Shown one piece after another: positions 7,819 to 30,883 of a stretch of 64,000 bases of DNA. How positions within the stretch are numbered: position 1 is the first letter of the stretch; each line of letters starts with the position of its first letter. The stretch comes from Thermoleophilia bacterium (GTDB lineage: Bacteria > Actinomycetota > Thermoleophilia > RBG-16-64-13), in the NCBI GenBank assembly GCA_026415615.1, contig JAOAGT010000002.1:448545-512544 (forward strand). The letters are read 5' to 3'. The notes below the pieces were generated by a model that was not told where the DNA came from, did no database searches, and worked only from the letters and a program-made list of their open reading frames with translations. Position numbers and translations under genes: made by a program.

Positions 7819-7863
7819 GTCAACTAAGGCGCGACGTGCCAACCGTTCGAGGAGAGAACAACG

Positions 7864-9591: not shown

Positions 9592-9602
9592 TTGCAGCAA
9601 AG

Positions 9603-9653: not shown

Positions 9654-9743
9654 TGTCTCAGAGCTCAAGCTCTCCCGAGGCTTGTCCTAGCTCGGCAATG
9701 AGTTGCGGGCTAGAAAACTCGCTATATGGTTACTTTCCAATAA

Positions 9744-11111
9744 TCACTGCCCCGGCCACGGTGGCTTCGGGTAAATGGGTTTAGCTGTCCGCTTTGGCCC
9801 TGGGTCTATTACCTCGATCACCCCGTTTTGCCACTGGCCGATGAAGCCAGCGTAACAATCGCGGGCAAGAAGCTGGTTCTCAAACCAAGTATCTCCCAGC
9901 ACAGTCTGGAAATGCTCAGTCTTTAGGACCTCAGCCACTTTCTTGTTGTCCAAAGTGCCGGCCTTTTCGATAGCTTGCTTCAACATGTCAAGCGCAGCCA
10001 CAAAGTAGGCATAGCCGTAGTAGTTCATGTTGGCTTCGGTTCCGACTCTTTGCAGCAGCTTGTCGTGGAGTTGAGCAAGAGCAGGTGAGCTATGCACGCT
10101 CCAGACTCCATAGCCGCAGACCCCCTCCACCACTTTGTAGCCTTGTTCTGGTCCTTTGTCGCCTCCCATGGCAAACGGGAAAGCGCCAAAGGTTGCTCCG
10201 GGGCCCATTACCAGCATGCGCGGGTTATAGCCCAGTTGCATCATCTGGGCCACCATCGGGAAGTTCTGATCTGGGTAGCAGGGTACGAAGAAGCAGTCAG
10301 GATCAGCCTGCTGCACCTTTCGTAGTATCTGAGTGAAGTCTGCGGTGTTGGCAGGAATTGCCTCGTCATAAAGCAGCTTGATTCCCGCGTTCTTGGCCTC
10401 CTGGCGCATAACCTCGGAGTACTCTAGCCCGTGGAGGTCATCGAGATACACCATAGCTACGCTCTTAACTCCCACTTCCTTGAATATATCGATGAGGGTT
10501 GGGATGTCGTAGTGATTTGAATAGCTGAGCAAGCCAAAGAACATCGGCAAGTCGGGCAGCACCTCTTCAATGCTCTTGGCCCCTGCTTCCCCCGAGATGA
10601 GCAGATAACCGTGGGAGTTCGCCACATTCGCGGCTGCGAAGACAAATGCTGTACTTGCGGGAGAAAGGATGAAGTCCACCTTGTCCTCGACCATAAGCTT
10701 CTCAAGGAGCCGCATGCAGGTGTCCATATCGCTCTGGTCGTCGTAGACTTTCATCTCGATGGGGAGTTTCTTGCCATACTCAGCTACGTAAATGCCGCCT
10801 TCGGCATTGACCTCTTCTACCCACATCTTATAGATGACACCCAAAGCATTTTGCTCGAAGAAGCTTAGTGGTCCAGAGATGGGACGGGCGGCTCCGATGA
10901 CTATCTTGTCTTTTCCGCCCAGAGTGGTGGCAGTAGAAGTTTCTGTACTAGGAGCAGCAGTAGTCGTAGGTCCGGATGTGGTCGAAGGTCCGGCAGTTGT
11001 GCTGGGTGCTGCCGTTGTAGTTGTCTCCTTCTCGCCACAAGCAGCAACCAGCAAGGCGACCGCGGCGAGTATGCATACAACGGCCAGAATTCGTAAGTGT
11101 TTAGATCTCAT
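9744..11111 (-). CDS. ABC transporter substrate-binding lipoprotein, branched-chain amino acid (LivK/Leu-Ile-Val-binding) family fold
   Basis: Signal peptide plus lipobox LVAACGEKE. Long TTTAAPSTTAGPSTTSGPTTTAAPSTETSTATT linker. Type-I periplasmic-binding fold motifs (KIVIGAARPISGP..., FIGQW). No permease or ATPase adjacent. Confidence 0.8.
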   Translation of the reverse strand: MRSKHLRILAVVCILAAVALLVAACGEKETTTTAAPSTTAGPSTTSGPTTTAAPSTETSTATTLGGKDKIVIGAARPISGPLSFFEQNALGVIYKMWVEEVNAEGGIYVAEYGKKLPIEMKVYDDQSDMDTCMRLLEKLMVEDKVDFILSPASTAFVFAAANVANSHGYLLISGEAGAKSIEEVLPDLPMFFGLLSYSNHYDIPTLIDIFKEVGVKSVAMVYLDDLHGLEYSEVMRQEAKNAGIKLLYDEAIPANTADFTQILRKVQQADPDCFFVPCYPDQNFPMVAQMMQLGYNPRMLVMGPGATFGAFPFAMGGDKGPEQGYKVVEGVCGYGVWSVHSSPALAQLHDKLLQRVGTEANMNYYGYAYFVAALDMLKQAIEKAGTLDNKKVAEVLKTEHFQTVLGDTWFENQLLARDCYAGFIGQWQNGVIEVIDPGPKRTAKPIYPKPPWPGQ

Positions 11112-11284
11112 TTTTTATTCATCCCCCTCTCTTGCCTGTGCTGTCAGGAACGCACACGTTGCAGAATACAAACGCTAAACCGGATAAGCAATGCCTAGGG
11201 GCTACCGTGACCTGATGAGCAGGTGCTGATCCCCAGCACTGAAAAACCCCGCCCAGGCTTTTCTAAAGGTTAAATGGTGCGACG

Positions 11285-12025
11285 CTAATACTTGTCTGGA
11301 GCCGCACCGGGGGCCACACCGGGAGGAGGCGTCTGTATCGGTCTGCCGGTAACCGGATGAGAGCAGTGAAAAGGCAGAACCTCGTGCTCTGGCCAGCGGA
11401 GCGGCATTTGGTCGGCTAGTTCATCCGGACCATAAGGATCCTCGGGGTATGTGGTAGTGAGCAACGGTACAAAGTTAGGCGGCGCGAAAGCCCATCCATT
11501 CTCAAAAGTGCTAAACCATACCGGCCGATAGTCAAGCTTCTTGATCCGCCAGATGCCGTCGCGCTTGACGTAGACATTTTCATAGAGCGCCCCTTCCCAC
11601 CACTGTCGCGAGATGGTGGTGGGAGAGGGGTTGCGTTCGTAATGAGTGCCCGCCTGCATCAGAAGACGAAACCGGCCCCACGCTGTCTGCCGGTCGGGGG
11701 CGACGTCGATGACGTCCTGCATCATGGGGTGGTCAAGCAAGAAGCCGAACACAGGGCCATTCTTGCCGTTGGTGAACTGCTCGCGAAATCGCCCGCAGTA
11801 GAGACGGCGCGCACCTTCCTTGCCTCGGTAAATACCGCCGAAAAAATGAACTTCGCAATCGTCGTCGTAGCAATCCACGGCCTCGTCGTACATGCATTTG
11901 TCGATGAAGTAGCCGTAGAGATGCTGAAGCCGGCGAATTGCTTGTATGTCCTCAACCACCCCCAGGCGGTATTCGAGTTCTCTTACTCGCTCGCTAAGCT
12001 TCTCAAGCTCTGCAACCGGATCCAT
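11285..12025 (-). CDS. NTF2-like/SnoaL-like fold protein
   Basis: 246 aa, Trp/Tyr-rich, with a pattern typical of SnoaL-like polyketide cyclase/NTF2 superfamily proteins. Operonic with the cupin genes. Confidence 0.5.
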   Translation of the reverse strand: MDPVAELEKLSERVRELEYRLGVVEDIQAIRRLQHLYGYFIDKCMYDEAVDCYDDDCEVHFFGGIYRGKEGARRLYCGRFREQFTNGKNGPVFGFLLDHPMMQDVIDVAPDRQTAWGRFRLLMQAGTHYERNPSPTTISRQWWEGALYENVYVKRDGIWRIKKLDYRPVWFSTFENGWAFAPPNFVPLLTTTYPEDPYGPDELADQMPLRWPEHEVLPFHCSHPVTGRPIQTPPPGVAPGAAPDKY

Positions 12026-12066
12026 CTCGGCCCCCCCACCATTTGACTAGCTTGCTCCTCGATACT

Positions 12067-13092
12067 TCAGCTTGCTCCCCGGTACTTCTCAACACCCACC
12101 CCAATAGGCTGGGACATCAAAAAGAAAACTTGCTTTCTTATGTCTCTGATGATCAAAGGTCCCTGACTTACGTTTGGGGGGATATAGGCGAAGAAACTCT
12201 TGGTAATCACGTGCTTCTCGCCCCCAATCCAGAGCTCGACCTCAGCGCAAAGGTCCGTGATGTCCTCGTAGTTAAGACCCAGCATAGCCAGGGAGGTGCC
12301 GTGAGGAACGGCGTGCTCGTCCATGATCACCAACTCCGCCCTTGTCTCTTTGGTGGGCAGATACCATCTGGTGTCACAGCCAAACTCAGCATCAGGGATC
12401 ACGGTCTCGTCAATATAAGCAGCAGGACGAACGTATTCGGGGTCAAGGGGACGCATGTATTCTGGGCGCTTCACATCCGGAGGCGTGCCGAATACTACAT
12501 ACCGGGCGTATTTGGACTCGGCAGGGTCCACGTGTCTGGCCACTGGCGGCTCTTTCTGTTCCTCCTCTGCCTGTTTGGTTTTTTCGTCTTTCTCCCGTGT
12601 GTAGACCCCGCCTGGCCCCGAAGTCCAATGCACGGTCGGGCGGGAGAAATGATGGCCGGTCACCCCTCCTGAGAACACTGGCATATGAGGGAGCCCGGCT
12701 GGTACGTAGGCTACCCAACTGCTTGGGAGGGGAATAATTTCGTCACCCATCTGAATGGCTGTGGGGTCGGTTTTGCTCGGGTCGTCTGGATCGGTTCCCC
12801 ACCAAGAAAGCAGTTCGGGAAAGTCATGGACATGCGGAAACATGGTGGGTGTCTGGTAGCCCAGCTTGGCCAGGTCTTCCCAGGTTACCTGATTGGGATA
12901 GTCAGGAGGCCAAATCCAGGTGGTTTCCCCATAGTAGGCGCCAGGGATCACGTCGTGGTCGATCCAGTGGACATGCTCCATGCTAATCCGCTTCCCTTGG
13001 GCAGCCAGTTGACGCCTCTGCTCTGGGGTGGGGCCGGGCAAGAGGTGCTGCTTCTGCAATGTGGTGCAAATGTACTTGTCAAACTGACCCAT
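12067..13092 (-). CDS. bicupin-like protein of an HxH...E cupin-like family (two tandem domains)
   Basis: Domain 1 FPHVHDFPELLSWWGTDPDDP...GDEIIPLP...VPAGLPHMPV. Domain 2 EHAVPHGTS...LGLNYEDITDLCAEVELWIGGEKHV...IPPNVSQGPL. Both align with the 13137 and 33431 proteins. AAGGGAGGG ribosome-binding site. Confidence 0.6.
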   Translation of the reverse strand: MGQFDKYICTTLQKQHLLPGPTPEQRRQLAAQGKRISMEHVHWIDHDVIPGAYYGETTWIWPPDYPNQVTWEDLAKLGYQTPTMFPHVHDFPELLSWWGTDPDDPSKTDPTAIQMGDEIIPLPSSWVAYVPAGLPHMPVFSGGVTGHHFSRPTVHWTSGPGGVYTREKDEKTKQAEEEQKEPPVARHVDPAESKYARYVVFGTPPDVKRPEYMRPLDPEYVRPAAYIDETVIPDAEFGCDTRWYLPTKETRAELVIMDEHAVPHGTSLAMLGLNYEDITDLCAEVELWIGGEKHVITKSFFAYIPPNVSQGPLIIRDIRKQVFFLMSQPIGVGVEKYRGAS

Positions 13093-13136
13093 GGCCTTGT
13101 GCCCTCCCTTGACGTGTATCGCGCAGAACGCGCCGC

Positions 13137-13646
13137 CTATGATGTCCCTTTCCCGTAGGGGATTGTTTCAAAATTCATAACCTTGTGGGGATCGAAGTCC
13201 TTGTCTTGCTCAAAATACGGCTCTCTAGTTCCCTCCGGGCCAGCAAGCATGATCTCAACCTGAATTATGGGCTTGTCCACGCGAGTGACTTCTAACGGGC
13301 AGTGGGGAAGGCCAGGTGGGAGATGGACTAGCGTGGGCCGAGTGAATACGTGTTTTTCCATCTCGGGCCCAAAGTGGAGTACTACCTCAGCCTCAAATTC
13401 ATCGGGGTCTTCGGGATTTCCGCTGTACCAGGCCAGGAACTCGTGAAAATTGTGCGTGTGGCAGGGATTATCTCCTCGAAACGGCTTTCGCACAAACTGC
13501 AGGCCCATAGTAAGGGGAAACCCGAGCTGCTGGTGGCCGATCATAAGACCATCGAAGACTACCGTCCCATCTGACTTCATGCTGAGGCGCAAATGGGGCG
13601 GATGATGAATATATTGGTCATACTTTCCGCTCATGCTCGTCTCCAT
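13137..13646 (-). CDS. single-domain cupin-like protein of the same HxH...E family
   Basis: CHTHNFHEFLAWYSGNPEDPDEFEAEVVLHFG...LPPGLPHCPL...IMLAGP. Possible start at the second Met (13634). Confidence 0.6.
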   Translation of the reverse strand: METSMSGKYDQYIHHPPHLRLSMKSDGTVVFDGLMIGHQQLGFPLTMGLQFVRKPFRGDNPCHTHNFHEFLAWYSGNPEDPDEFEAEVVLHFGPEMEKHVFTRPTLVHLPPGLPHCPLEVTRVDKPIIQVEIMLAGPEGTREPYFEQDKDFDPHKVMNFETIPYGKGTS

Positions 13647-13649
13647 TGG

Positions 13650-14447
13650 TTACATTACCGATCCGCCTGAGACATGGAACACCTGTCCAGTCACATAGCT
13701 TGTAATGTCCGAGGCGAGGATCGCAATAGCATTTGCCATATCCCGCGCAGTGCCAAACCGGCCAAGCGGAAACTCACCCATGATGGCTGCCTGTCTTCTT
13801 TTCATCTCCTCTGGGGAAATGTTGGGGTCGGGCTCTCTTAGAATGGCTCCGAAGTTAGTGGGCACAGGACCGGGTGCCACACAGTTAACCCGAATTCCGT
13901 TTTTTCCTTCTACATACGCCAACTGCTTGGTGAACAAGTCGACGGCGTATTTGGAGATGGCGTACATACCCACCCCCATTTGGTACTGATGCGTGCTTCC
14001 CGAACCCACGTTCACGATGACCCCGTAGCCTCGTTCGCGCATATGAGGGACCACCGCCTGGGTGACGTTCATCGTGCCAATCAGGTTTAACTTAAGCTGC
14101 TTTTCCCAGACTGTAGGATCTTGCTTTTCGATGGGTACGTTGTCCTTGTGCAGGATAGCTCCGGCCACATTGCAGAGGATGTCAATCCGCCCAAATTCTT
14201 CGAGGACTTTCTGGACCATAGCTTTGACGGCCGCATTGTCAGTGATGTCGGCGCTTAGGGCAATACATCTTGGGCCCAAGCTGCGCACGGTTTCTGCGGT
14301 CTTGGCCAGGTTCTCCTCATCAATGTCTGTTACGGCGATGGCCTCGATCCCTTCCTCGGCCAACACCAAGGCCGTCTCTCTCCCTATCCCCACCTGGCTA
14401 GCTGCGCCCGTTACGAGGGCCACTTTGTTCTTGAAACCCAGATCCAT
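13650..14447 (-). CDS. short-chain dehydrogenase/reductase (SDR) family oxidoreductase
   Basis: VALVTGAASQVGIGRETALVLAEEG (TGxxxGxG), NVAGA, catalytic YAISK, PGPV motif. Confidence 0.9.
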   Translation of the reverse strand: MDLGFKNKVALVTGAASQVGIGRETALVLAEEGIEAIAVTDIDEENLAKTAETVRSLGPRCIALSADITDNAAVKAMVQKVLEEFGRIDILCNVAGAILHKDNVPIEKQDPTVWEKQLKLNLIGTMNVTQAVVPHMRERGYGVIVNVGSGSTHQYQMGVGMYAISKYAVDLFTKQLAYVEGKNGIRVNCVAPGPVPTNFGAILREPDPNISPEEMKRRQAAIMGEFPLGRFGTARDMANAIAILASDITSYVTGQVFHVSGGSVM

Positions 14448-14472
14448 GTTCGCGACTCCCTGCTTGTAGTGA

Positions 14473-16320
14473 TTATGGCCACAGCACTTGGGCTATGTCA
14501 TCGAGACCCAGCTCAAGCAGTTTGGCCTTGCTCGGCTTGCCCGTCTTCGTATCCCAGTCCATCTCGACCAGGTACTGATCGTAAATCTCCTCGTGCGTGA
14601 AGGTGATGCCGGCTCGTGGGCCCACGGTCTTGGGCGGTACGCCTCTCATCCTATCGGGGTAGAGGAAAGGCGTCTGGACACCCTCTCTAATGTTGAAGGC
14701 CTGCCTGACGTTGGTGATTCTTTCACCGGTCTTAAGCAGCTCGTCTGCGCTGATGTCCTCCCAGCCGGTCAGGGCTCTCAGAGCTTCGAGCAGTTGGTCC
14801 ACATGTGGATATGCTCCAATCACAAACTGGCAAAGCCCCATGGCGCTTGCTGCGTGCATGAAGTTGGTGCTGATCTTGTGGTAAAGGCCACGGCCGGTAC
14901 GTTGCTCGCGTGGTATATCGGGTATATTCAAGCCTGGTGGGTGTTGCCCGCCTCCCTGATTGTGTCTTCCGGGGGTGGGGTCGCAGCCATAACCAATGGC
15001 AAATCCCCAACCGCCACGAGGGTCGTGACCAGCAATCTCTTGACCGCCAATGTGCATGGCATATTTCTCTGCGCCCCGACCAATCTTCTCGGCCGCGCGC
15101 TTTACGCCGTCGGCGATGATGTCGCCAAAGCCCTCACGCTTGGCCATCTTCTCGACCATTGCCACGATAGCCTTGTGATTGCCCCAGGTCATCTCAAGGC
15201 CGTCTGTGTCCGCCTGAGAAAGCACGCCGTTTTCATAACACTCAATGGTGAAGGCGATGCAAGCACCCGCAGAGATGGTGTCTAGGCCATAACGATTGCA
15301 GATGTCGGCGGCCAGGATGATGGAGTCAAGGTTTGAGTTCAGGAGGTTGCTCCCCAGCATAGCAAGCGTCTCGTACTCGGGTTTATGAGCGCCCTCCTCA
15401 TACTTGTATTCGCCTGTTCCGGCTTTCATTAGGCCCCCGCAGGCAATGGGGCAACGCCAGCAGGCAAAGCGGCGCATCTGCTTTTCTAATACCGCTTGCC
15501 CTCCACAAGCTGCGTAGTCGGGAAGATCGACGGTAACCACACCGGCCCAATTCTTGGCTGGAGCGTCGTCGATTATGCAGCACATCTCGAATATGCCGGG
15601 GGTGCCGGTTTCGTGTAGCTGCTCAGCATGGCCGGTAAGGGCGGCCACGTGCTTTTTTCTGAGCTCTTTCATTAACTCGGGGTTGTAGGCCGGCGGGATG
15701 AGATTGCCCTGGGCCACGATAGCCTTTAGACGCTTGGAGCCCATGACCGCGCCGAGACCTGAACGGGCCGCGGCTCGGCCCTTATTGTTGATTACCCCGC
15801 TAATTAGAGCGAGCTTCTCGCTCGCTGGACCGATGCAGGCTACCTCCAGGTTCTTGCCGTGTTTGGCGCGCAAGATATCTTCAGTTTCTACAGTGTCTTT
15901 CCCCCAAATCTCTGCGGCGTCCAGGAGTTGGGCCTCCCCATTGTGAAGGTAAAGGTAGACCGGTTTCTCGGAAATTCCGGTGAAAAAGACGGCGTCGTAA
16001 CCAGCGAACTTAAGCTGCGGGCCAAAGCTCCCTCCCGAGTTGGCGTCCCCCCATCCTCCGGTGAGAGGAGATTTGCCGACTACTGTGTAGCGGGAGCCGC
16101 CGACTACGTCGGTGCCAGTGGTTATGCCGGTCACAAAACCCAACGTGGCGTCGGGGCCTAGGGGATCTACTCCTGGCTTTTGCCGGTCCCAGAGCACTCG
16201 CGCGCCTAGCCCGTATCCGCCCAGGTATTTGCGGGCGGCCTGTTCGTCGAAAGTATCTACGGTTATCTCGTGGGTTGTAAGATCCACCCAGAGGATTTTC
16301 TCCATAGCTCCAAAAGCCAA
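14473..16320 (-). CDS. aldehyde:ferredoxin oxidoreductase (AOR family, tungsten/molybdopterin-containing)
   Basis: N-terminal AOR domain KILWVDLTTHEI...GGYGLGARVLW...GKSPLTGGWGDANSGGSFG. CWRCPIACGG 4Fe-4S ligand region. 615 aa. Confidence 0.9.
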   Translation of the reverse strand: MAFGAMEKILWVDLTTHEITVDTFDEQAARKYLGGYGLGARVLWDRQKPGVDPLGPDATLGFVTGITTGTDVVGGSRYTVVGKSPLTGGWGDANSGGSFGPQLKFAGYDAVFFTGISEKPVYLYLHNGEAQLLDAAEIWGKDTVETEDILRAKHGKNLEVACIGPASEKLALISGVINNKGRAAARSGLGAVMGSKRLKAIVAQGNLIPPAYNPELMKELRKKHVAALTGHAEQLHETGTPGIFEMCCIIDDAPAKNWAGVVTVDLPDYAACGGQAVLEKQMRRFACWRCPIACGGLMKAGTGEYKYEEGAHKPEYETLAMLGSNLLNSNLDSIILAADICNRYGLDTISAGACIAFTIECYENGVLSQADTDGLEMTWGNHKAIVAMVEKMAKREGFGDIIADGVKRAAEKIGRGAEKYAMHIGGQEIAGHDPRGGWGFAIGYGCDPTPGRHNQGGGQHPPGLNIPDIPREQRTGRGLYHKISTNFMHAASAMGLCQFVIGAYPHVDQLLEALRALTGWEDISADELLKTGERITNVRQAFNIREGVQTPFLYPDRMRGVPPKTVGPRAGITFTHEEIYDQYLVEMDWDTKTGKPSKAKLLELGLDDIAQVLWP

Positions 16321-16398
16321 CGCCTACCTCCTTAGCTCGATGACGCCGTATTTATGACTATGGTCTTTATGACCCACTCAGACATCCGTTTGGCTTAG

Positions 16399-17715: not shown

Positions 17716-17724
17716 GGCTGCCTC

Positions 17725-18273: not shown

Positions 18274-18458
18274 GTCACTAACCTCTCACAGGTTGGTTGA
18301 AGTACGCGCAAGCAGAGAAGCAGAGGGCGCGAAGCGGCCCTGGACAGGGCCGCTTCGCGCCCTCACTTGGGTCTTGCCTGGTTCCGCAGGATGGCAAACC
18401 ACCCCGATCCGCCTAGCCTACGACCTGTCTAGCCTATGGCTGGCTAATCCAGGCACCT

Positions 18459-20832: not shown

Positions 20833-20836
20833 ATAG

Positions 20837-22093: not shown

Positions 22094-22123
22094 CAAAGCA
22101 CAGGAAAGCTTAGGAATGAAACC

Positions 22124-22858: not shown

Positions 22859-22873
22859 CAAGGAGTACCAGTC

Positions 22874-23095
22874 ATGGCCATACGTCACTTTAGTCGTGAC
22901 GATTGCACGGGATGCGGGATATGTGTCGCTGCGTGTCCCATGGATGTGCTTCGTCTGGATGAGGAAGCGCAGAAGGCAACCGTAAGCTATCCCGACGACT
23001 GCATCGCCTGCTGGGGTTGCGAGTCGTTCTGTCCGCAGGGTTGTTTCGATATTTCTCCCGAACGGGCCCGCGGGGAGCTACCCGCTCCTTACTGA
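22874..23095 (+). CDS. 2x[4Fe-4S] ferredoxin
   Basis: CTGCGICVAACP and CIACWGCESFCP motifs in 73 aa. AAGGAG ribosome-binding site. Confidence 0.85.
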   Translation: MAIRHFSRDDCTGCGICVAACPMDVLRLDEEAQKATVSYPDDCIACWGCESFCPQGCFDISPERARGELPAPY

Positions 23096-23133
23096 GTCTC
23101 GCGGAGTAACAAAGGCGAGTGGGAAGGAAAGAC

Positions 23134-24849
23134 ATGAGAGGCTGGGATCAAACGCCGGTTAGGATTGCTGCCGATGTGCTGGTGCTGGGAGCGGGCGGTG
23201 CTGGCATGTGTGCGGCGCTTAAAGCGCGGGAAATCGGCGCTGATGTTCTGATGGTAGACAAGTGCGGCATCGGCTACAACGGGCAGGTGCCTATCGGGGG
23301 CGGCATACTCGCGTACATTTACCCCTCCTACGTAGAGACGTGGGTTGAGAAAGTTACCCGCCAGAGCCATTTCTTCAACAACCAGGAATGGACGTATCTC
23401 TTTGGCCGCTCAATGGACCCAGTTACTACTGAGCTTGCGAAGCTAGGGCTCACATTCTTGCGGAAAGAGGGCGAGATCGAGATTCTAACCTGGGGTCCAA
23501 ATATCCATGTGACGCTATTTGACGCGCCCAAGTCCTTAGTGGCCCTAAAAAGAACAGCCGCCGCCCGGGGCGTGCGCATGATGGACAAGATTTTTGCTGT
23601 CGATCTGCTCAAGAAAGACGACCGTGTGGTAGGAGCGGTGGCCTTTGGGTTGGTAGATGGGCGGGTTTATGTTTTTGATGCCAAGGCAGTAATTGTTGCC
23701 ACCGGGAACTGCGGCTACCAGCATGAAAAAACTTACAGCTCCGTCCAAGGCGAGGGCCCAGCTATGGGTTATCGAGCGGGGGCCAAACTCACCAACGCCG
23801 AGTTCAACAGCATGTACGTGTGGGGAGCTAAGGTCCTTGGCAAGGAGTTAATGGGCATCCATTACTACCTGTATCTCGAGAACGCCCGGGGAGAAAAGAT
23901 TATGGGCAAGCACTATCCGGAGCTGATGGTAGGAAAGCATGCCGTCTACACCTTTGATCCTCGGGTTATTGACGCCATGTACAAAGAGGTCCAGGCTGGG
24001 CTAGGACCCATCTATCTAAACCTCACGGGGCTGAGCGAGGAAGAAATTGCAGGGCTTGCCGAAGACGTCGTGGAAGAACTCTCTCATCTTATGGCAAACG
24101 ACTCCATGCGTTTGCTTCGGGAAAAGGCCGGCATTGATCCCACGAAAGAGCGCATCGAAATGTGGCCTCGTCTGTTGTACACGGGGGGCGGCATGCTGGT
24201 GGACACAGAGTGTCGAACGACTGTCCCAGGTCTTTGGGCGGCGGGGGGAGCGTGCAGCACCTTGTGGACTAACGGCGGCGGTGGTCAGGGCGGTCTAGGG
24301 GTACAGAACGCCGCGGTTACTGGATTTGTCGCTGGGGAGAGTGCAGCCAAATGGGCGGCGGAGACAACGCTTGTGCGCGCCGATGATGCCCATGTTGAGC
24401 AAGTTGTGGGGCGGATTATTGAGCCGCTTGTGCGGGAAGGGGCGGGCGACCCGTACGAGGTCACCTACCGAGTACATGAAGCAATAGTTCCCATGAAGTA
24501 CAACCGCATCCGAGAGGCTACTAGGATGCGTGAGGCACTGGGGATCTTGGCGGATGCGCGCGAAAAACTGTCTCGTATAAGCGTCCGCAATTTCCACGAT
24601 CTAGCCCGTTATCACTCAGCAGAAAGCATGCTGATGGCGGCGGAGTTTACCTACCAGGCTGCTTTAATGCGCCAGGAGAGCAGAAGCCAGCACTATAGAG
24701 AAGATTTCCCCGCGCGAGACGACGCAAATTGGCTTAAGTGGATCACGATCGAAAAGGGGGCAAACGGCCCCGAGCTTGGTGTTGTACCCGTGCCCTTGGA
24801 GAAGTACCCGCTCAAACCAGACTGGTGGCCAGCATTGAGCGGGAATTAG
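23134..24849 (+). CDS. FAD-dependent oxidoreductase, succinate dehydrogenase/fumarate reductase flavoprotein-like family
   Basis: ADVLVLGAGGAGMCAALKARE dinucleotide-binding motif. Approximately 570 aa. C-terminal helical capping domain. Start chosen at ATG 23134 (the ORF alternatively starts at 23119). Confidence 0.8.
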   Translation: MRGWDQTPVRIAADVLVLGAGGAGMCAALKAREIGADVLMVDKCGIGYNGQVPIGGGILAYIYPSYVETWVEKVTRQSHFFNNQEWTYLFGRSMDPVTTELAKLGLTFLRKEGEIEILTWGPNIHVTLFDAPKSLVALKRTAAARGVRMMDKIFAVDLLKKDDRVVGAVAFGLVDGRVYVFDAKAVIVATGNCGYQHEKTYSSVQGEGPAMGYRAGAKLTNAEFNSMYVWGAKVLGKELMGIHYYLYLENARGEKIMGKHYPELMVGKHAVYTFDPRVIDAMYKEVQAGLGPIYLNLTGLSEEEIAGLAEDVVEELSHLMANDSMRLLREKAGIDPTKERIEMWPRLLYTGGGMLVDTECRTTVPGLWAAGGACSTLWTNGGGGQGGLGVQNAAVTGFVAGESAAKWAAETTLVRADDAHVEQVVGRIIEPLVREGAGDPYEVTYRVHEAIVPMKYNRIREATRMREALGILADAREKLSRISVRNFHDLARYHSAESMLMAAEFTYQAALMRQESRSQHYREDFPARDDANWLKWITIEKGANGPELGVVPVPLEKYPLKPDWWPALSGN

Positions 24850-24900
24850 CTGGTAGTTGGATAGGCGGCCCTCAACGGTAAAGGAGGCGGGAAGAGCGCG

Positions 24901-26367
24901 ATGGTAAGCAAAGAAAGACTGGCAGAGATAGTAGGGGCTGCGAATGTCAGCAGCGAGCCGGATGTTCTTGAGCAGTACGCCAGGGACGTGAGTTTTGTCA
25001 ATCATACAAGACCGGCGTACGTGGTTAAGCCCCATACCGCCCAGGAGGTCAAGGACCTTGTCAAACTGGCCAACGAGAGCCGTACGCCTCTGGTGCCAGT
25101 GAGCTCGGGCCCACCGCACTTTCGGGGAGATACGGTGCCCACAGCGGGCGGGGCGGTGGTGGTAGACCTGAGTGAGATGAAACGCATCGTGTTTGTGGAT
25201 CGCCCGCGCAGAGTGGCCATGGTTGAGCCAGGCGTGACCTTTGGAGAACTCATTCCGGCTGCCACCAAGGAAGGGATTAGGCTAAACATGCCTCTCTTGC
25301 CTAGAACGACCAAGACAGTCGTGGGCAGCATGTTAGAGAGGGAACCTGTGGTCATGCCCAAGTATCAGTGGGACATCTCCGATCCCTTGGCGTGCGTTGA
25401 GGTAATCTTCGGCACGGGTGACGACTTCCGCACGGGCCAGGCCGCTGGACCCGGCACCATCGAAGAGCAGTGGCAGGTCGGGGGAGTGCAGAAAGCCCCC
25501 TACGGGCCTCACATTACCGCGTGGCATAGGCTCATTCAGGGAGCTCAGGGAACCATCGGAATCGTGACCTGGGCCTCTTTGCGCTGTGAGCTGCTGCCTC
25601 GGTTACAGGAGCCTTACGTCGTAGCAAGTGCGCAGCTGGGACCTTTGGTGGAGATGGCAGCCTGGTTGATTCGGCTAAGGATGGCCAACGAGTGCTTCAT
25701 TTTGTCGAATGCCAACCTGGCTGCGATCTTTGCCGAAGACTGGCCAAACGATTACGTCAAGCTAAAAGCCTCTCTGCCCTCTTGGACATTGTTCTACGTT
25801 CTGGCCGGCTACGAGTACTTCCCCGAAGAGAGGGTGGCGTCATATCAGAAGCAAGTCGTATCTCTTTGTCAGCGCCTAGCTCTGGAGCCGCTGCGGGCGG
25901 TGGGCGGACTTTCTGCGCGCAGCATCATGAAAGCTGTGCAGAACGTGTGCCCCGAACCCTACTGGAAGCTCCGCTACAAAGGCGCCTCAGAGGACGTGTT
26001 CTTCCTTACCACCAACGACAAGGTGGAAGGATTTGTAAGTACGATGCAGGCTCTTGCTGCCGAGGTAGGGTACGCTGCCTCTGACTTAGGAGTCTATGTC
26101 CAGCCAGTGGTGCAAGGTACGGCTTGTCACGTAGAGTTCAACCTCTTCTACGATCCAGGTGACAGCAAAGAAGTCGAGCGGACTAGATGTCTTGCCGGCA
26201 TTGCCACGAAAGCGTTCTTGGATGATGGCGCCTTCTTCTCTCGTCCATACGGCGAGTATGCCCGGGACATCATGAATCGCGATGCTGCGTCGCTAGATGT
26301 GCTTAAGAAGCTGAAGGGGATCTTTGATCCCAACAACATCATGAACCCGGGCAAGCTTTGCTTCTGA
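24901..26367 (+). CDS. FAD-linked oxidase (GlcD/D-lactate dehydrogenase-like, PCMH-type FAD-binding domain)
   Basis: N-terminal FAD-binding-4 pattern (VVKPHTAQEVKDLVKLANESRTPLVPVSSG). C-terminal FAD-oxidase domain. AAAGGAGG ribosome-binding site. Confidence 0.85.
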   Translation: MVSKERLAEIVGAANVSSEPDVLEQYARDVSFVNHTRPAYVVKPHTAQEVKDLVKLANESRTPLVPVSSGPPHFRGDTVPTAGGAVVVDLSEMKRIVFVDRPRRVAMVEPGVTFGELIPAATKEGIRLNMPLLPRTTKTVVGSMLEREPVVMPKYQWDISDPLACVEVIFGTGDDFRTGQAAGPGTIEEQWQVGGVQKAPYGPHITAWHRLIQGAQGTIGIVTWASLRCELLPRLQEPYVVASAQLGPLVEMAAWLIRLRMANECFILSNANLAAIFAEDWPNDYVKLKASLPSWTLFYVLAGYEYFPEERVASYQKQVVSLCQRLALEPLRAVGGLSARSIMKAVQNVCPEPYWKLRYKGASEDVFFLTTNDKVEGFVSTMQALAAEVGYAASDLGVYVQPVVQGTACHVEFNLFYDPGDSKEVERTRCLAGIATKAFLDDGAFFSRPYGEYARDIMNRDAASLDVLKKLKGIFDPNNIMNPGKLCF

Positions 26368-26429
26368 GCTTTGCTTCTGAGGCGAGGCCTGTTGGTGAGA
26401 CATTGGTCGTAGCAGAAGGAAGGAGCGAG

Positions 26430-27704
26430 ATGGCATTAGAAGATTACGCCGGTGACATGAACATGTGTTGCCGCTGCTCGGCATGCAAGTTCATACCACT
26501 GCAGATGATCAAAGGGTATAAGCATGCCTATGTGTGCCCCAGCATCTCCCGGTACAACTTCCACTTCTTCTCTGGCGGCGGCAGACTGAACCTGGGGGTG
26601 GCGGGGCTGGAGCAGGGGTTCAAATACACGCCCTGGTACCTCTCCAGTGTCTATAACTGTCAGCAATGCGGCGCCTGCGACGTGTCCTGCAAGTACGGCA
26701 TGGACATGGAGGTCCTGCTTCCCATCCAGGAGCTTCGCATCAAGGCAGTGGAAGACGGGCATGCGCATCCGGCTCTGGCGCGCGTGGTGGAGCGGATGAA
26801 CAAGACCGGGAGCATGGTCCCCATGGAAGGGGCAAGCCGTGGGGACTGGGCTGCGGACTTGGGCCTCAAAGACGCCACCCAAGAGAAGGTGGAGGTTCTC
26901 TACCACGTAGGGTGCCTGACCAGCTTTGATAAGGATATGCAGGCGGTGGCTCGGGCGACGGCCAAGGTACTTGGCGCGGCCGGGATTGACTTTGGCATCC
27001 TGGGCGATGCCGAGACCTGCTGTGGGGGGCGCGCCTACGAGATGGGCCACAAGAATGACTTCATGACTCAGGCCAAGAAGAGCATGGAGGTCATCCGGTC
27101 CACTGGGGCAAAATTCCTGGTCACGAGCTGCGCCGAGTGCTACCAGGCCTACAAGGTTCTCTACGATCGTTTTGGCCTACGGAATGATTCGGAGCTTAAG
27201 GTTCTCCATACCTCTCAGCTTCTAGACGAGGTGATAAGCCAGGGCAACCTCAAGCTAAGTGGCCGGGTCGATCTGTGTGTTACTTATCACGATCCTTGCC
27301 ATCTGGGCAGACTAGGAGAGCCCTGGATCCACTGGCAGGGTAAAAAAGTGCCGGGCGACCGCTTCATCTTTGACCCGCCGAAGCCTTACCGCCGCGGCAC
27401 TAACGGGGTATACGAGCCGCCGCGCCGGGTGCTAAAAAGCGTACCCGGGGTGATTCTCGAGGAGATGGACCGCATAAAGGAATACGCGTGGTGCGCTGGT
27501 TCGTGCGGTGGTGTTACCGACTCCAATCCGGAGTTTGCCGAATGGACCGCCGAGCAGCGTCTCGAAGAGGCGCTCTGCACAGGCGCGGAGGCGATTGTCT
27601 CGGCTACCCCGTGGGGCGAGAAGCTCCTGCGCGATGTCGCAAAGAAGAACGACGTGCAGCTCGAGGTTTATGACCTTGTTGAACTGGTCGCCCAGGCTAT
27701 CTAG
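26430..27704 (+). CDS. Fe-S oxidoreductase, GlcF/heterodisulfide-reductase-D-like (two 4Fe-4S motifs plus two CCG domains)
   Basis: CCRCSACKF and CQQCGACDVSCKYG, then HVGCLTSFD...CCGG and YHDPCHLGR cysteine-rich CCG domains. Start set at MALEDY (GAAGGAAGGAG ribosome-binding site). The ORF extends to 26358. Confidence 0.8.
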   Translation: MALEDYAGDMNMCCRCSACKFIPLQMIKGYKHAYVCPSISRYNFHFFSGGGRLNLGVAGLEQGFKYTPWYLSSVYNCQQCGACDVSCKYGMDMEVLLPIQELRIKAVEDGHAHPALARVVERMNKTGSMVPMEGASRGDWAADLGLKDATQEKVEVLYHVGCLTSFDKDMQAVARATAKVLGAAGIDFGILGDAETCCGGRAYEMGHKNDFMTQAKKSMEVIRSTGAKFLVTSCAECYQAYKVLYDRFGLRNDSELKVLHTSQLLDEVISQGNLKLSGRVDLCVTYHDPCHLGRLGEPWIHWQGKKVPGDRFIFDPPKPYRRGTNGVYEPPRRVLKSVPGVILEEMDRIKEYAWCAGSCGGVTDSNPEFAEWTAEQRLEEALCTGAEAIVSATPWGEKLLRDVAKKNDVQLEVYDLVELVAQAI

Positions 27705-27721
27705 GAAGGAGGTCGAAAGCC

Positions 27722-29212
27722 TTGGCACTTACTAAGGAAATGTATGAGGCGTTCGCAGGGGTAGTGGGGGAAGAGAATCTCTGCGACGATCCCGCCATGA
27801 TGGCTGCTTATTTCCGCACGGATTTTGCGGCGGTGGTGATGCCCAAGGACACTGCCGAAGTCCAAGCGGTCGTCAGATTGTGCAATAAGTTCAAGCTAAA
27901 GTTTAGGCCCATATGTACAGGCTGGACGGGAGTCTTCCAGCCGGGCAGCGTTCTGCTTGATCTGCGGCGGATGAACCGCATCATCGAGATCAACGAAAAG
28001 AACATGTATGCGGTAGTGGAGCCGTACGTGACTTCTGCCCAGCTGCAGGCTGAGCTGTTTAAGCGAGGGCTGAACACCAACATGAAGGGGGCAGGAGCCC
28101 AGTGTTCGGCCATGCTTCGGGGCCACGGACATCTCGATCAGTCGTGTGGCGCTGACGATCGCAATCACCTAGCTGTGGAGTGGGTGACTCCCGAGGGCGA
28201 GCTGGTCAAGATGGGATCCTGGGGCGCCATCGGTGAGTGGTTCTGTGGCGATGGGCCAGGCCCCTCTTTGCGCTCCCTTGTGTCCAGTGTGGTTCCGCCG
28301 AGCACCACTCCGGGCGTCTTCACCAAGGTGGCGATGAAGCTTTATCACTGGCCGGGGCCTGATAAGTACGCGCTGGAGGGCTACTCTCCCAAATATACGT
28401 TGCGGGAGTTTCCGCCCAACATGATGGCTCGGTACTACAGCTTCCCCACGCTTGAGAAGATGTGGCAGGCGGAGATTGCCATCGGCGAGGCGGAGATCGC
28501 TCTTGAGCTCATGGGCTTCAACGCGGCCATGGTGGCGGCGAATATCACCACCTGCAACGAAGAAGAAATGGCCATGTTTGAACGCCTCTCTAAGGAGGTG
28601 CAGGGGCCGGGCTTCTTTGTGATCATAGCTGGCGATTCTCCAGAAGACTTTGCCTACAAGAAAAAGGTCCTTGAGACTATCGTCAAGGAAAATGACGGGC
28701 AGTCGCTTAAGACAGTCGAAGATCCGGAGCTTGAGGGTATCCTGCTTACGCAGTGCACAAGAATCAGTGCATCAGTTCGGGAGACGTTCCGACCGGGTGG
28801 GTACTTCAAGTCGATTCCCATCATGGGTCAACGTGACCTTACTATTCGTTGGGCTGTAGGTGCTGGCAAGGCCAAGCTCCCGCTTATTGAGCAGGGTCTT
28901 ATTGCCGATGACGGTGGCGGATTCTTCGGCTGGGGAGTGGAGCACGGTCATCTCGGCAAGACGGAGATCTTCTGCAAGTTCAGTCCGCTTAATCCCGAGG
29001 CCTGGAAAGCGGTTAACAAGTGGCACCAGGAGCAGGTCCAGCGGGCGCTTGACGAAAAGTACTTTGCTCTCACCATGGGGCCGCAGGAAGAGATCGACAA
29101 GAAGGTTGGGCCCGCTCTCTCGAACTATCACTTGTGGTGGTACAAGGTGCTCGACGCCTTAGACCCCAACGGAGTGGTGCCTGACAAGGGCCTGAGCAAT
29201 CTTACGCCGTAG
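27722..29212 (+). CDS. FAD-binding oxidoreductase (GlcE/GlcD-like second flavoprotein subunit)
   Basis: PCMH-type FAD domain (VVMPKDTAEVQAVVRLCNKFKLKFRPICTGWTG). 496 aa. GGAAGGAGG ribosome-binding site. TTG or downstream ATG start. Confidence 0.8.
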   Translation: MALTKEMYEAFAGVVGEENLCDDPAMMAAYFRTDFAAVVMPKDTAEVQAVVRLCNKFKLKFRPICTGWTGVFQPGSVLLDLRRMNRIIEINEKNMYAVVEPYVTSAQLQAELFKRGLNTNMKGAGAQCSAMLRGHGHLDQSCGADDRNHLAVEWVTPEGELVKMGSWGAIGEWFCGDGPGPSLRSLVSSVVPPSTTPGVFTKVAMKLYHWPGPDKYALEGYSPKYTLREFPPNMMARYYSFPTLEKMWQAEIAIGEAEIALELMGFNAAMVAANITTCNEEEMAMFERLSKEVQGPGFFVIIAGDSPEDFAYKKKVLETIVKENDGQSLKTVEDPELEGILLTQCTRISASVRETFRPGGYFKSIPIMGQRDLTIRWAVGAGKAKLPLIEQGLIADDGGGFFGWGVEHGHLGKTEIFCKFSPLNPEAWKAVNKWHQEQVQRALDEKYFALTMGPQEEIDKKVGPALSNYHLWWYKVLDALDPNGVVPDKGLSNLTP

Positions 29213-29217
29213 GGGGT

Positions 29218-29258
29218 GGGCGGGCGCAGGCCCTGCAGGGCCTGCGCCCGCCCCCTTT
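29218..29258 (+). terminator. GC-rich palindromic terminator
   Basis: GGGCGGGCGCAGGCCCTGC/GCAGGGCCTGCGCCCGCCC perfect inverted repeat followed by CTTT. Confidence 0.5.
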
Positions 29259-29359
29259 CAGTACCCGTCCAATACGTGGGCCGGGAGTGTAGACTTTCTA
29301 GCCTGCTTCGCGCAGCGCTTCTCTCTTGTTTGTTTCGATAACGGCAAGGAGGTTGCGGT

Positions 29360-30883
29360 TTGACAGCCCTACCCGAGAGAACAGCAAGCTGGTGCCAAGC
29401 GTTGTTCTTTGCTGGATCCACGACCTACATGTGGAATCAGGCGCCGGAGCTTAAAGCGCTTTTCTTGACGGCCTGCTCCTTCGAGGAAGGTATGGACGTA
29501 CTCCTTATAGGCAAGTTCTTGGAGGAAAGCGGTCTTGTTTCGGCCGTTGAGTCGATCCTACGGAGCTGGGGCAATCTGCGGGTAGTGGACTTGGCTCCCC
29601 AGGTTGTGGCTGCATGGCGGGCGGCGGGTGTGGCAGATGAGCAGCCTTCTTTCAAATGGGATCTTGATTGTTTTGATGAGCTCAGAGATGGGAGTCTCGA
29701 CCGTGTCGTGTTGTTTAACGCGGCCTCCCACGTTGCGGACTGGGAACATCTGTCTGCTCAAATCGGCCGGGTTCTTTGTCGAGGAGGCCGGGTTGTAGTC
29801 GCAGAGGCTCCACTGGGCGGGGCTGCTTTTAAACGCGCCCTTGCCTTTCACGCAGGATGGCGAGCAACGGTCGAAGGATTGCTTAGCGGCTTGGATCTAG
29901 AAGAAAGGGCAGTTGCTCCGCCAGAACCGGAGGATCTCAGGGCTCTGCTTGCCCAGCATATGACTTGGGCTCGTGTGCATGAGTGGCAGGGAATCTTTAT
30001 TTGCTACGGACAAAAAGGTCTCACAGAAAGGGAGGAGCTGGAAGCGTCCACAGCTGCCGAGATGGCCGGTCTGGGGGAGAATGATCTGGTCTACGTACCC
30101 GGTCCGGACACGTTTACAGCTTTTCCGCCGGCCAACATCTGGGTGCGCAGTTTCTTGAAGGTGCGTCCAGTGCGCACCACGTGGAGCCTTATGAGCGAGC
30201 TTGAGAAGGAAATTTGGGCAGACACCGCTGTAGAACTAGTGACACACTCAGGTGGCGATCTGTCAACAAATAAGGTGCTGGGGCTTAGCTTGATCGTCGA
30301 GTCGCCACAATCTGAGTTGGCGTCGCAGACACTGGTTTTGACGAAGCCTGCTGCAATAGGAGATGCGCTAGGAGGCTTTTCTCATCACTGGGCTTCTGGG
30401 CTTGTCGGCGCGTTTCTGGAATGCTTCCTGGGTCCAGATGATGGCCACCTTGCAAAGGTTGGAGAAACGCATGGTCCTTCTGAGCTGGGAAGTCTTGTTG
30501 CCAGACACTCGGCAGACGAGCTTGATCTTCTTTTTGTTGACGCCAGACTGGGTGACAGACACTACTGGAAGGAAACAATATCCCTCCTGTTGCCGGTTCT
30601 AAAACCCGGGGGCCGGCTTGTGTTATTTGCGGAAGATGGCGATGCTATCCAGCTGCTGTCGTTTCACAGCGCCTTCGCGCGCCTGCTTCTGGCAAGACTA
30701 GTGACTCCAGCAGACCCACTCGCTGCAGACTCCGCGGACGCGCTCTGTAACCGACTGACGGGCGGCATAAATATGGACCCCGAGTTGCTGCGCCAAGTGC
30801 TTGCAGGGTTCTTTGATGAGATCTCTGTGGCAGGACACGGCGGCTTCGTATTTGTGTCTGGCCGAAAACCTATGCGTCTTTAG
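29360..30883 (+). CDS. hypothetical protein with two tandem degenerate class-I methyltransferase-like domains; paralog B
   Basis: 507 aa, TTG start with AAGGAGG ribosome-binding site. Aligns with 7864..9591 along its length: WCQALFFAGSTTYMWNQAPELKALFLTACSFEEGMDVLLIGKFLEESGL vs WCQAIFYAGTTLCMWNALPEVKAAFLSLCSFEPGMKVFLVGKYLWESGL; GSLDRVVLFNAASHVADWEHLSAQIGRVLCRGGRVVVAEAPLGG vs GSLDRVVFFNGGAHVANWEHVASEISRVLGEHGRLVMAEAPLGG. Confidence 0.7.
   Translation: MTALPERTASWCQALFFAGSTTYMWNQAPELKALFLTACSFEEGMDVLLIGKFLEESGLVSAVESILRSWGNLRVVDLAPQVVAAWRAAGVADEQPSFKWDLDCFDELRDGSLDRVVLFNAASHVADWEHLSAQIGRVLCRGGRVVVAEAPLGGAAFKRALAFHAGWRATVEGLLSGLDLEERAVAPPEPEDLRALLAQHMTWARVHEWQGIFICYGQKGLTEREELEASTAAEMAGLGENDLVYVPGPDTFTAFPPANIWVRSFLKVRPVRTTWSLMSELEKEIWADTAVELVTHSGGDLSTNKVLGLSLIVESPQSELASQTLVLTKPAAIGDALGGFSHHWASGLVGAFLECFLGPDDGHLAKVGETHGPSELGSLVARHSADELDLLFVDARLGDRHYWKETISLLLPVLKPGGRLVLFAEDGDAIQLLSFHSAFARLLLARLVTPADPLAADSADALCNRLTGGINMDPELLRQVLAGFFDEISVAGHGGFVFVSGRKPMRL

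Follow-up and report, generated by a model that had tools for sequence, protein, structure and literature searches.

A conserved pair of divergent operons in Thermoleophilia and related Actinomycetota combines an LdpA-like lyase, an aldehyde:ferredoxin oxidoreductase and a new cupin family, and may serve the oxygen-independent catabolism of a phenolic acid

The locus described here lies on contig JAOAGT010000002.1 of the Thermoleophilia bacterium assembly GCA_026415615.1, within a stretch of 64 kb that is referred to as the window. The open reading frames (ORFs) of the window were listed and their products were searched against the Pfam and NCBIfam profile collections. An original prediction, made from the letters alone, had drawn a supercluster of 18 genes in two divergent operons between positions 9744 and 30883. 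All 18 ORFs were found in place, with the families that the prediction had named. Sixteen of them, at 11285-29212, form a conserved unit of two divergent operons, one on the minus and one on the plus strand, in which the gaps between genes are short or overlapping. The unit and its divergent intergenic region contain the following features.

11285-12025, minus strand: LdpA-family NTF2-like lyase (Pfam SnoaL_4, 7.7e-24), last gene of the minus operon
12067-13092, minus strand: bicupin of 341 aa, no Pfam or NCBIfam match; 100% identical to MCX8032736.1
13137-13646, minus strand: single-domain cupin of 169 aa, no Pfam or NCBIfam match
13650-14447, minus strand: short-chain dehydrogenase/reductase (SDR) 1 (adh_short_C2, 1.9e-54; no NCBIfam equivalog at cut-off)
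14473-16305, minus strand: aldehyde:ferredoxin oxidoreductase (AOR) with AFOR_N and AFOR_C domains (Pfam, 251 and 338 bits)
16399-17715, minus strand: large permease DctM of a tripartite ATP-independent periplasmic (TRAP) transporter (PF06808, 2e-72; TIGR00786, 293 bits, above cut-off)
17725-18273, minus strand: TRAP small permease DctQ (PF04290, 8.4e-21)
18459-19610, minus strand: TRAP solute-binding lipoprotein DctP (PF03480, 1.3e-28; NF037995 above cut-off), first gene of the minus operon
19840-19859, no strand: operator-like repeat CTACTAG-N6-CTACTAG in the divergent intergenic region
20185-20832, plus strand: TetR-family regulator (TetR_N; probable start, the ORF being open from 19876)
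20837-22093, plus strand: URO-D-superfamily protein resembling substrate:corrinoid methyltransferases (MT-I) (PF01208, 1.4e-19)
22124-22858, plus strand: SDR 2 (adh_short_C2, 1.8e-57)
22874-23095, plus strand: 2x[4Fe-4S] ferredoxin of 73 aa (Fer4 families; weak similarity to AprB and HgcB)
23119-24849, plus strand: flavoprotein of the SdhA/FrdA/AprA fold (FAD_binding_2 and Succ_DH_flav_C)
24901-26367, plus strand: FAD_binding_4 flavoprotein 1, 488 aa (PF01565 and PF02913); 100% identical to MCX8032748.1
26358-27704, plus strand: iron-sulfur protein with a 4Fe-4S dicluster and two CCG domains (Fer4_8 and two copies of PF02754), the CCG protein
27722-29212, plus strand: FAD_binding_4 flavoprotein 2, 496 aa (PF01565), last conserved gene of the plus operon

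The neighbourhood is clearly conserved in relatives, contrary to the outcome that would have refuted the original prediction. With the aligned sequences of the URO-D protein and its relatives as query, a scan in which each GTDB species was represented by a single genome returned 80 loci, to which all window proteins were compared by tblastn. Twelve species-level metagenome-assembled genomes (MAGs) of Actinomycetota carry the block from the SnoaL_4 gene to the second FAD_binding_4 gene in the same divergent order and orientation, at 50-84% amino acid identity. These MAGs are named RBG_16_64_13, Gaiellales, or plain Actinomycetota or Actinomycetes, and many come from soil (isolate prefix MFD). 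A metagenome scan anchored on the bicupin recovered the same layout in loci L086, L089, L091 (~90% identity) and L097, and the complete cluster is also present in L167/L168, reached via a FAD protein of 68% identity for which at least 24 contigs are on record. Among the syntenic loci, identity amounts to 74-92% for the cupin, 70-82% for the ferredoxin and 63-84% for FAD_binding_4 flavoprotein 2. Because the same order and orientation recur in at least 17 independent loci of the genome and metagenome scans, at an overall amino acid identity of 60-90%, the gene arrangement is not due to chance.

Two of the 18 genes first grouped together lie outside the conserved unit.

9744-11111, minus strand: LivK/Peripla_BP_6-type binding lipoprotein (Pfam)
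29360-30883, plus strand: Methyltransf_11 protein (Pfam)

No counterpart of either protein was detected by tblastn in the 12 MAG loci. The genes 3' of the second FAD_binding_4 gene differ in every relative, and past both ends of the unit the relatives have other genes. As the end genes are not conserved with the cluster, the conserved unit is taken to be 11285-29212; the supercluster as first drawn holds for its 16 inner genes and not for the two at its ends. The LivK-type protein has no permease or ATPase genes nearby and no counterpart next to the cluster in relatives, its sole match being in L016 (44%). The unusual composition that had been attributed to the region is not borne out at the level of bases: GC is flat, at 0.55-0.58 over the whole window. 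This rules out a horizontally acquired island that could be detected by composition.

The two operons have a control region in common. The repeat in the window lies between the starts of DctP and TetR and is the sole such site in 64 kb, against a chance expectation of 0.23. The 22-mer element ACTACTAGCACACGCTACTAGC occurs with up to three mismatches in 13 of the 15 syntenic divergent intergenic regions; apart from this element and the ribosome-binding sites, these 15 regions have little sequence in common. Most relatives carry a third CTACTAG copy 13 bp upstream. The position of the repeat and its partial dyad symmetry point to a putative TetR operator common to both operons. Scans for consensus promoters and terminators gave results at chance level and were uninformative. 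The start of DctP at 19610 had been placed correctly, since it opens a lipoprotein signal (MRKLAII...LAVSC). The regulator had been annotated from 19876; its family and open frame stand, and its start is probably 20185, because the TetR_N helix-turn-helix occupies residues 114-159 of the long ORF and the orthologue in L167 was called at 193 aa.

The last product of the minus operon, first described as NTF2-like, is by alignment a clear homologue of LdpA. It matches the LdpA structures PDB 8abv and 8abt with 195 and 187 bits at 44% identity over residues 11-230 of 246. LdpA (LsdE) is a cofactorless NTF2-like lyase of Novosphingobium aromaticivorans and Sphingobium sp. SYK-6, with structures PDB 8abt-8abw (PMC9942872). 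It converts the lignin beta-1 dimer erythro-DGPD (the erythro form of 1,2-diguaiacylpropane-1,3-diol) into lignostilbene and formaldehyde via a quinone-methide intermediate (PMC9942872). Mutagenesis showed that the acid-base dyad H97-D40 (motif I), E143 and the oxyanion-hole residues Y35/Y147 are essential; the oxyanion hole holds the substrate phenolate, and H183 contacts the beta-guaiacyl (second) ring (PMC9942872).

Seven residues of N. aromaticivorans LdpA are kept in the window protein (Y35 as Y37, D40 as D42, Y74 as Y76, H97 as H99, E143 as E144, Y147 as Y148 and Y165 as Y166). All seven are also conserved in 12 of 12 orthologues from the cluster, and every position at which mutation abolishes LdpA activity is invariant there, which suggests that LdpA-type chemistry, with a 4-hydroxyphenyl substrate and a benzylic leaving group, is probably retained. 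The Glu-Tyr-Gln triad of motif II is incomplete: Y166 is kept, and Q170 is replaced by F171 in the window and by I or F in orthologues. H183 is replaced by N184 in the window and by E, D or N among orthologues. The predicted second-ring part of the pocket is different from that of LdpA. The family is small, with 141 representative clusters at E <=1e-30 among 1.84 billion proteins. Many LdpA-like representatives (P0368-P0381 and others) are 450-1000 aa long and have two or three LdpA-like domains in tandem; as LdpA is a homotrimer, such proteins may be pseudo-trimers formed by fusion. Several relatives (L001 801-1451, L006 593-1243, L010 431-1081 and others) have an additional gene between those for the LdpA-like protein and the bicupin, which is absent from the window and encodes a 216-aa NTF2 paralogue. 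This paralogue keeps the equivalents of LdpA H97 and Y147, lacks D40 and E143, and is probably non-catalytic.

The adjoining cupin and bicupin constitute a new cupin family that is not represented in Pfam. The bicupin found no match by sequence or profile search of the PDB, nor among Pfam and NCBIfam models. Its fold, named bicupin-like in the original prediction, was upheld by an AlphaFold2 (AF2) model with a predicted local distance difference test score (pLDDT) of 90.3 and by a Foldseek search of the PDB, which returned the bicupins quercetinase and oxalate decarboxylase with a probability of 1.0, TM of ~0.4 and 11-15% identity. In the N-terminal barrel, H87-x-H89-x3-E93 is invariant and H136 nearly so, forming a putative His/Glu metal site. 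The 169-aa cupin is homologous to the N-terminal half of the bicupin (hhalign probability 93%, E 3.6e-7), with the common motif PH-H-F-E-L-W...P-G-PH. The ~320 homologues of the bicupin are all unnamed. In some relatives a third small cupin, whose gene is not in the window, is encoded between the URO-D and SDR 2 genes. A pectin/uronate module of the KduI-KduD-KdgF type was considered and rejected: neither KduI nor Cupin_2 models are matched by the cupins, and the SDR has a better match than kduD.

The AOR matches 1aor best in the PDB, at 329 bits over its full length, compared with 194 bits for the BamB-type protein 4z3w; formaldehyde:ferredoxin oxidoreductase (FOR, 1b25) was also matched. It carries a CxxCxxxC [4Fe-4S] cluster motif (CWRCPIAC). 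By these scores the protein is of the classical type within the tungsten/molybdenum-pterin AOR family, and a BamB-type dearomatising reductase was rejected. The TRAP set upstream is complete, with DctP, DctQ and DctM adjacent on one strand, and all three families (PF03480, PF04290 and PF06808), together with TIGR00786 and NF037995 over their cut-offs, bear out the organic-acid importer that had been proposed. DctP comes closest in the PDB to 4mnc (82.6 bits), a structure reportedly solved with benzoylformate bound; literature look-ups did not confirm this ligand, and it was not used as evidence.

On the plus strand, the URO-D protein belongs to a family of more than 4,000 relatives. Its only meaningful relative in the PDB is CdmB (9rui, 134 bits), with an alignment limited to the C-terminal half. 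In the chloromethane system, CdmB serves as the substrate:corrinoid methyltransferase; the O-demethylases MtvB, OdmB and VdmB form the sister group of its clade (PMC13222342). In L081, a related MAG, a 71%-identical paralogue is encoded directly after a B12-binding corrinoid protein. The URO-D protein resembles, in sequence and in the company of its paralogue, MT-I proteins of the O-demethylase/CdmB type. No corrinoid protein, second methyltransferase (MT-II) or activating enzyme is encoded among the 16 conserved genes, either here or in the syntenic loci. The corrinoid-type methyltransferase of the original prediction is thus supported as a protein with MT-I-like features, and finds neither a corrinoid protein nor a second methyltransferase in the cluster. 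The sole B12-binding protein in the window is a corrinoid protein at 60881-61534 on the minus strand (B12-binding_2 and B12-binding domains), which is a candidate partner of the URO-D methyltransferase 40 kb away. Its gene lies between those of a GntR/UTRA regulator (61592-62491) and a formate/nitrite-family transporter (59946-60950).

The remaining plus-strand proteins are redox proteins, for which the prediction had used the names Sdh/Frd-like and GlcD-, GlcE- and GlcF-like. These names hold for the architecture only. The SdhA-fold flavoprotein has its best PDB match in the AprA-like alpha subunit of a 3'-phosphoadenosine-5'-phosphosulfate (PAPS) reductase (8a8o, 141 bits), and its NCBIfam scores of 130-200 bits compare with cut-offs of 560-930. 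Relative to E. coli FrdA, the covalent-FAD histidine H44 is N, H232 is Y, H355 is L and R390 is G or Q, so that three of the four dicarboxylate-site residues are absent and only the proton donor R287 is kept; the L167 orthologue shows the same pattern. A genuine fumarate reductase or succinate dehydrogenase was rejected on these grounds. The glcD equivalog model gave 52 and 44 bits against a cut-off of 568, and GlcE 21 against 284. The CCG protein is nearer to TfrB (131.7 bits) than to GlcF (25 bits, cut-off 333). The FAD domains of both FAD_binding_4 proteins are nearest in the PDB to the vanillyl-alcohol oxidase/p-cresol methylhydroxylase (VAO/PCMH) family, including p-cresol methylhydroxylase and vanillyl-alcohol and eugenol oxidases, with 77 and 53 bits; for flavoprotein 1, the 77 bits compare with 45 bits for D-lactate dehydrogenase. 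The two proteins are only distant kin, with 32% identity confined to the N-terminal 126 aa.

Genes of both operons also come together in other arrangements. On unassigned metagenome contigs (L084, L085, L126, L128 and L132), a variant layout has an AOR gene (79-83% identity) whose stop codon overlaps the start codon of the bicupin gene behind it, followed by a radical-SAM gene. The divergent side of this layout encodes beta and alpha subunits of an electron-transferring flavoprotein (ETF), a FAD_binding_4, a CCG and a second FAD_binding_4 protein, an SDR and a PrpD-family protein. In L135 the FAD trio is followed directly by genes for the bicupin, a major facilitator superfamily (MFS) transporter, a URO-D protein and an Amidohydro_2 protein, and L125 brings together the bicupin, the trio, an MFS transporter and a SnoaL_4 protein. 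That three different layouts join genes of both window operons argues that AOR, bicupin, FAD trio and an SDR work together. The repeated pairing of the new cupin family with AOR suggests a new aldehyde-forming reaction.

Several putative modules of phenol metabolism are found in the window and in related loci. A second catabolic cluster at 40114-50180 of the window encodes an acyl-CoA dehydrogenase, a LysR regulator, ETF beta and alpha, ETF-QO, a pyrogallol-hydroxytransferase-like Mo enzyme (41589-44093, with an AhtL-like first domain) and its Fer4_11/CarboxypepD_reg small subunit (40736-41587). It is followed by a radical-SAM protein (50837-51580), a second bis-molybdopterin guanine dinucleotide oxidoreductase with a Fe4S4 domain (51626-54199) and a small 4Fe-4S protein (54129-54617). 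The hydroxytransferase-like module recurs in L081 beside corrinoid and URO-D genes. At 2990-11251, L081 encodes the 71%-identical URO-D paralogue, two more URO-D fragments, two B12-binding proteins, FMN_red proteins and a Chalcone_N (chalcone isomerase-like) protein, a probable methoxylated-flavonoid module. Beside the variant cluster of L085, genes at 14050-21068 encode a CGDB domain, AP_endonuc_2, two GFO_IDH_MocA oxidoreductases and an MFS transporter of the C-glycoside cleavage type, which suggests that this organism uses flavonoid C-glycosides. From these hydroxytransferase-like, corrinoid/URO-D and C-glycoside deglycosidase-type genes, the lineage looks specialised in (poly)phenol conversion. 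A phloroglucinol pathway was rejected as the function of the cluster: despite the pyrogallol-hydroxytransferase-like cluster 10 kb away, there is no matching enzyme set.

Elsewhere around the unit, the Methyltransf_11 protein at 29360-30883 has a paralogue at 7864-9591 (both on the plus strand; 40% identity over 312 aa), each with internally duplicated Methyltransf_11-like halves, so that the pair flanks the cluster; neither was found beside the cluster in relatives. Just past the cluster lie genes for a flavodoxin-like protein (31220-31768, minus strand), whose conservation with the cluster is not supported, and a conventional Cupin_2 protein (31853-32236, plus strand). Flanking LytR_cpsA_psr, NlpC/P60 and CWB2 genes fit a Gram-positive cell wall.

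We see an even chance that the 16-gene unit is a TetR-controlled, oxygen-independent catabolic island for a 4-hydroxyphenyl or guaiacyl carboxylic acid derived from lignin or polyphenols, degraded via an aldehyde. A phenolic substrate class is suggested by the LdpA residues, including the phenolate-holding Y35/Y147, by the MT-I-like protein and by FAD domains nearest to VAO/PCMH; the classical type of the AOR points to an aldehyde intermediate. Likely candidates, judged from gene content, are hydroxycinnamates or dihydrocinnamates, arylacetates or mandelate-type acids, or a carboxylated dimer fragment, any one of them being much less probable than the general reading. The earlier guess at an aromatic substrate gains from the LdpA-family lyase, the MT-I-like protein and the polyphenol genes nearby, and loses from the missing corrinoid partners.

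In the order of steps that we infer, the acid would be taken up by the TRAP system, and the benzylic carbon of its side chain would then be activated by quinone-methide chemistry, with the LdpA-type protein acting as lyase or hydratase together with the FAD enzymes. The FAD_binding_4/FeS-CCG/FAD_binding_4 trio would form a dehydrogenase, and the two SDRs would oxidise the resulting alcohols. The putatively metal-binding cupin and bicupin, whose role is presumed, may carry out C-C cleavage or decarboxylation to give an aldehyde, either aromatic or formaldehyde. The AOR, if it runs in the oxidative direction, would turn this aldehyde into an acid and reduce ferredoxin. The URO-D methyltransferase would strip O-methyl groups from the ring with a corrinoid protein encoded elsewhere, possibly that at 60881-61534. 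Finally, the small ferredoxin, the AprA-like flavoprotein and the CCG protein may carry electrons or reduce a C=C bond.

Several observations weigh against this reading. The specificity of the TRAP transporter is not readable from sequence. The cluster encodes no partner or activator for the methyltransferase, whose role is itself a prediction, and the nearest corrinoid protein is 30 kb off. The bicupin family also occurs alone or beside peptide-type ABC transporters and is thus not restricted to this pathway. The VAO/PCMH alignment is limited to the FAD domain, and the AF2 model of flavoprotein 1 has a pLDDT of 50, with aligned relatives that are all ~70% identical. In the LdpA-like lyase, two substrate-contact positions (Q170 and H183) are changed, so the substrate would not be DGPD-like in detail. 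Finally, the variant clusters hold a PrpD/MmgE-family gene and lack LdpA and URO-D genes; the common core could act on an aliphatic intermediate.

The LdpA homologue, with its complete essential catalytic set, also fits a lignin beta-1-type diaryl compound that is degraded as in sphingomonads and without oxygen. The homologue would remove formaldehyde to give a stilbene, the AOR would act as a formaldehyde or aldehyde oxidoreductase, the methyltransferase would demethylate the guaiacyl rings, and the AprA-like flavoprotein with its ferredoxin, the trio, the SDRs and the cupins would stand in for lignostilbene dioxygenase by hydrating, oxidising and splitting the bridge of the stilbene. This would suit the release of formaldehyde by LdpA (PMC9942872) and the oxidation of formaldehyde by AOR-family enzymes, with FOR 1b25 among the PDB matches. 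Two SDRs and two FAD enzymes suit a stepwise oxidation of the two-carbon bridge, and the Pfam scan found no oxygenase gene in the cluster. We nevertheless consider a diaryl substrate unlikely: the second-ring-binding H183 is E, D or N and a hydrophobic residue takes the place of the motif II Q170, DGPD is neutral while import by a TRAP transporter implies an anion, and the variant clusters combine AOR, bicupin, trio and SDR with no LdpA gene.

An aliphatic hydroxy acid or tricarboxylate (of the glycolate, lactate, hydroxyglutarate or citrate type) has a similarly small chance of being the substrate. Oxidation would then proceed by a GlcDEF-like dehydrogenase, the SDRs and the AOR after import by a dicarboxylate TRAP system, with the LdpA-like and URO-D-like proteins accessory or unrelated. 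The two FAD_binding_4 proteins and the CCG protein mirror the architecture of GlcDEF, the ETF genes of the variant clusters (as in lactate dehydrogenase/Etf complexes) and their PrpD/MmgE-family gene would fit, and DctPQM systems commonly carry C4-dicarboxylates. Against it stand the glcD, glcE and glcF scores given above, all far short of their cut-offs, and the FAD domains, whose PDB matches place VAO/PCMH ahead of D-lactate dehydrogenase and glycolate oxidase. An aromatic substrate is favoured by the strict synteny of the LdpA-type and MT-I-type genes and by the polyphenol setting.

AOR-family enzymes are reversible carboxylic acid reductases. This allows for a reductive, fermentative use of the cluster as an electron sink, in which reduced ferredoxin would drive an imported acid to the aldehyde, the adjoining SDR would reduce the aldehyde to the alcohol, and the flavoproteins would balance electrons. 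The SDR gene directly 3' of the AOR gene, and the genes for ferredoxin and several other electron-transfer proteins, are consistent with this, but it leaves the LdpA-type lyase, the cupins and the methyltransferase unexplained, as well as the conserved pairing of AOR with a catalytic-looking metal bicupin, and we regard it as distinctly improbable. That the cluster consists of two unrelated operons, neighbours by descent without a common function, would agree with the uninformative promoter and terminator scans and is very improbable given the synteny data: many species have the divergent pair intact at 50-84% identity with changing genes on either side, the common control region beside the regulator gene contains a conserved repeat, and AOR and bicupin from one operon have re-assorted together with the trio and SDR from the other in further lineages.

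The cupin family is new; all other proteins belong to known superfamilies, and catabolic clusters of such a kind are well known. No description of this gene combination was found in the searchable literature, in keeping with the prediction, in which no described pathway had been recognised. The oxygen-free mineralisation of lignin- and polyphenol-derived aromatics is a long-standing gap. It matters for lignin valorisation and for how carbon is stored in peat, wetland soils and sediments, the subject of the "enzyme latch" debate. To our knowledge, the LdpA family is the only family of cofactorless lignin-dimer lyases. Here an LdpA-type lyase is paired with the oxygen-sensitive AOR, Fe-S flavoproteins and a corrinoid-type methyltransferase, in a conserved cluster with a wide distribution among abundant, uncultured Actinomycetota of soils and sediments. 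It is possible, though doubtful, that the cluster offers a first genetic handle on an oxygen-independent cleavage of lignin-derived side chains or C-C-linked units that is widespread in uncultured Thermoleophilia; the work that oxygenases do in aerobic lignin degraders would then fall to a quinone-methide lyase of the LdpA type, a new family of metal cupins and a tungsten AOR, with cluster variants in unassigned contigs from anoxic soil and sediment. Expressible targets are the binding protein (for ligand screening), the LdpA-like lyase and the AOR-bicupin pair.

Compared with known systems, the cluster combines familiar parts in an unfamiliar way. Rhodopseudomonas palustris imports lignin-derived hydroxycinnamates via TRAP (TarPQM) and LivK-type (CouP) binding proteins (PMC3610893). 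Set side by side by class, the DctPQM-type TRAP system and the adjoining LivK/Peripla_BP_6-type protein recall TarPQM and CouPSTU in their aromatic-catabolic context; unlike in CouPSTU, the LivK-type protein lacks permease and ATPase partners and does not accompany the cluster in relatives. With the tungsten AORs of Pyrococcus furiosus (1aor) and Aromatoleum aromaticum (AorB, 8c0z), the AOR has in common both AFOR domains and the Fe-S cysteine motif, whereas it is paired genetically with the new cupin/bicupin family and has no partner subunits of the AorA or AorC type. Like the corrinoid systems of acetogens (MtvB/OdmB/VdmB and CdmBCA; PMC13222342), the cluster encodes a URO-D-superfamily TIM-barrel protein, with a paralogue encoded after a corrinoid protein; it differs in the absence of a corrinoid protein, MT-II and activating enzyme, and in an alignment to CdmB that is confined to the C-terminal half.

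The small 2x[4Fe-4S] ferredoxin gene directly 5' of the SdhA-fold flavoprotein gene resembles the arrangement of AprBA and of the Methanothermococcus thermolithotrophicus PAPS reductase (8a8o), and the CCG protein is TfrB-like, as in thiol:fumarate reductase TfrAB. In contrast to these systems, all scores lie far below the family cut-offs, the fumarate-binding residues are absent, and no sulfur-metabolism genes are nearby. Two FAD_binding_4 proteins with a 4Fe-4S/CCG protein (24901-29212) are reminiscent of GlcDEF, from which the trio differs in its gene order (FAD-FeS-FAD) and its low scores. Its FAD domains are closest to the structures of PCMH, vanillyl-alcohol oxidase and eugenol oxidase, while the substrate domains match no solved structure by sequence and there is no cytochrome subunit as in PCMH.

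The closest counterpart of any single protein is LdpA itself. The NTF2-like fold, the full-length alignment, the His-Asp dyad, Glu143, Tyr35/Tyr147, Tyr74 and Tyr165 are common to both, and Gln170 and His183 differ, being Ile/Phe and Glu/Asp/Asn in the cluster proteins. Homologues of LdpA have so far been studied only in aerobic sphingomonads (PMC9942872). Whereas the LdpA gene of an aerobe lies with lignostilbene dioxygenases, the cluster gene stands with AOR, cupin and TRAP genes in a putative anaerobe.

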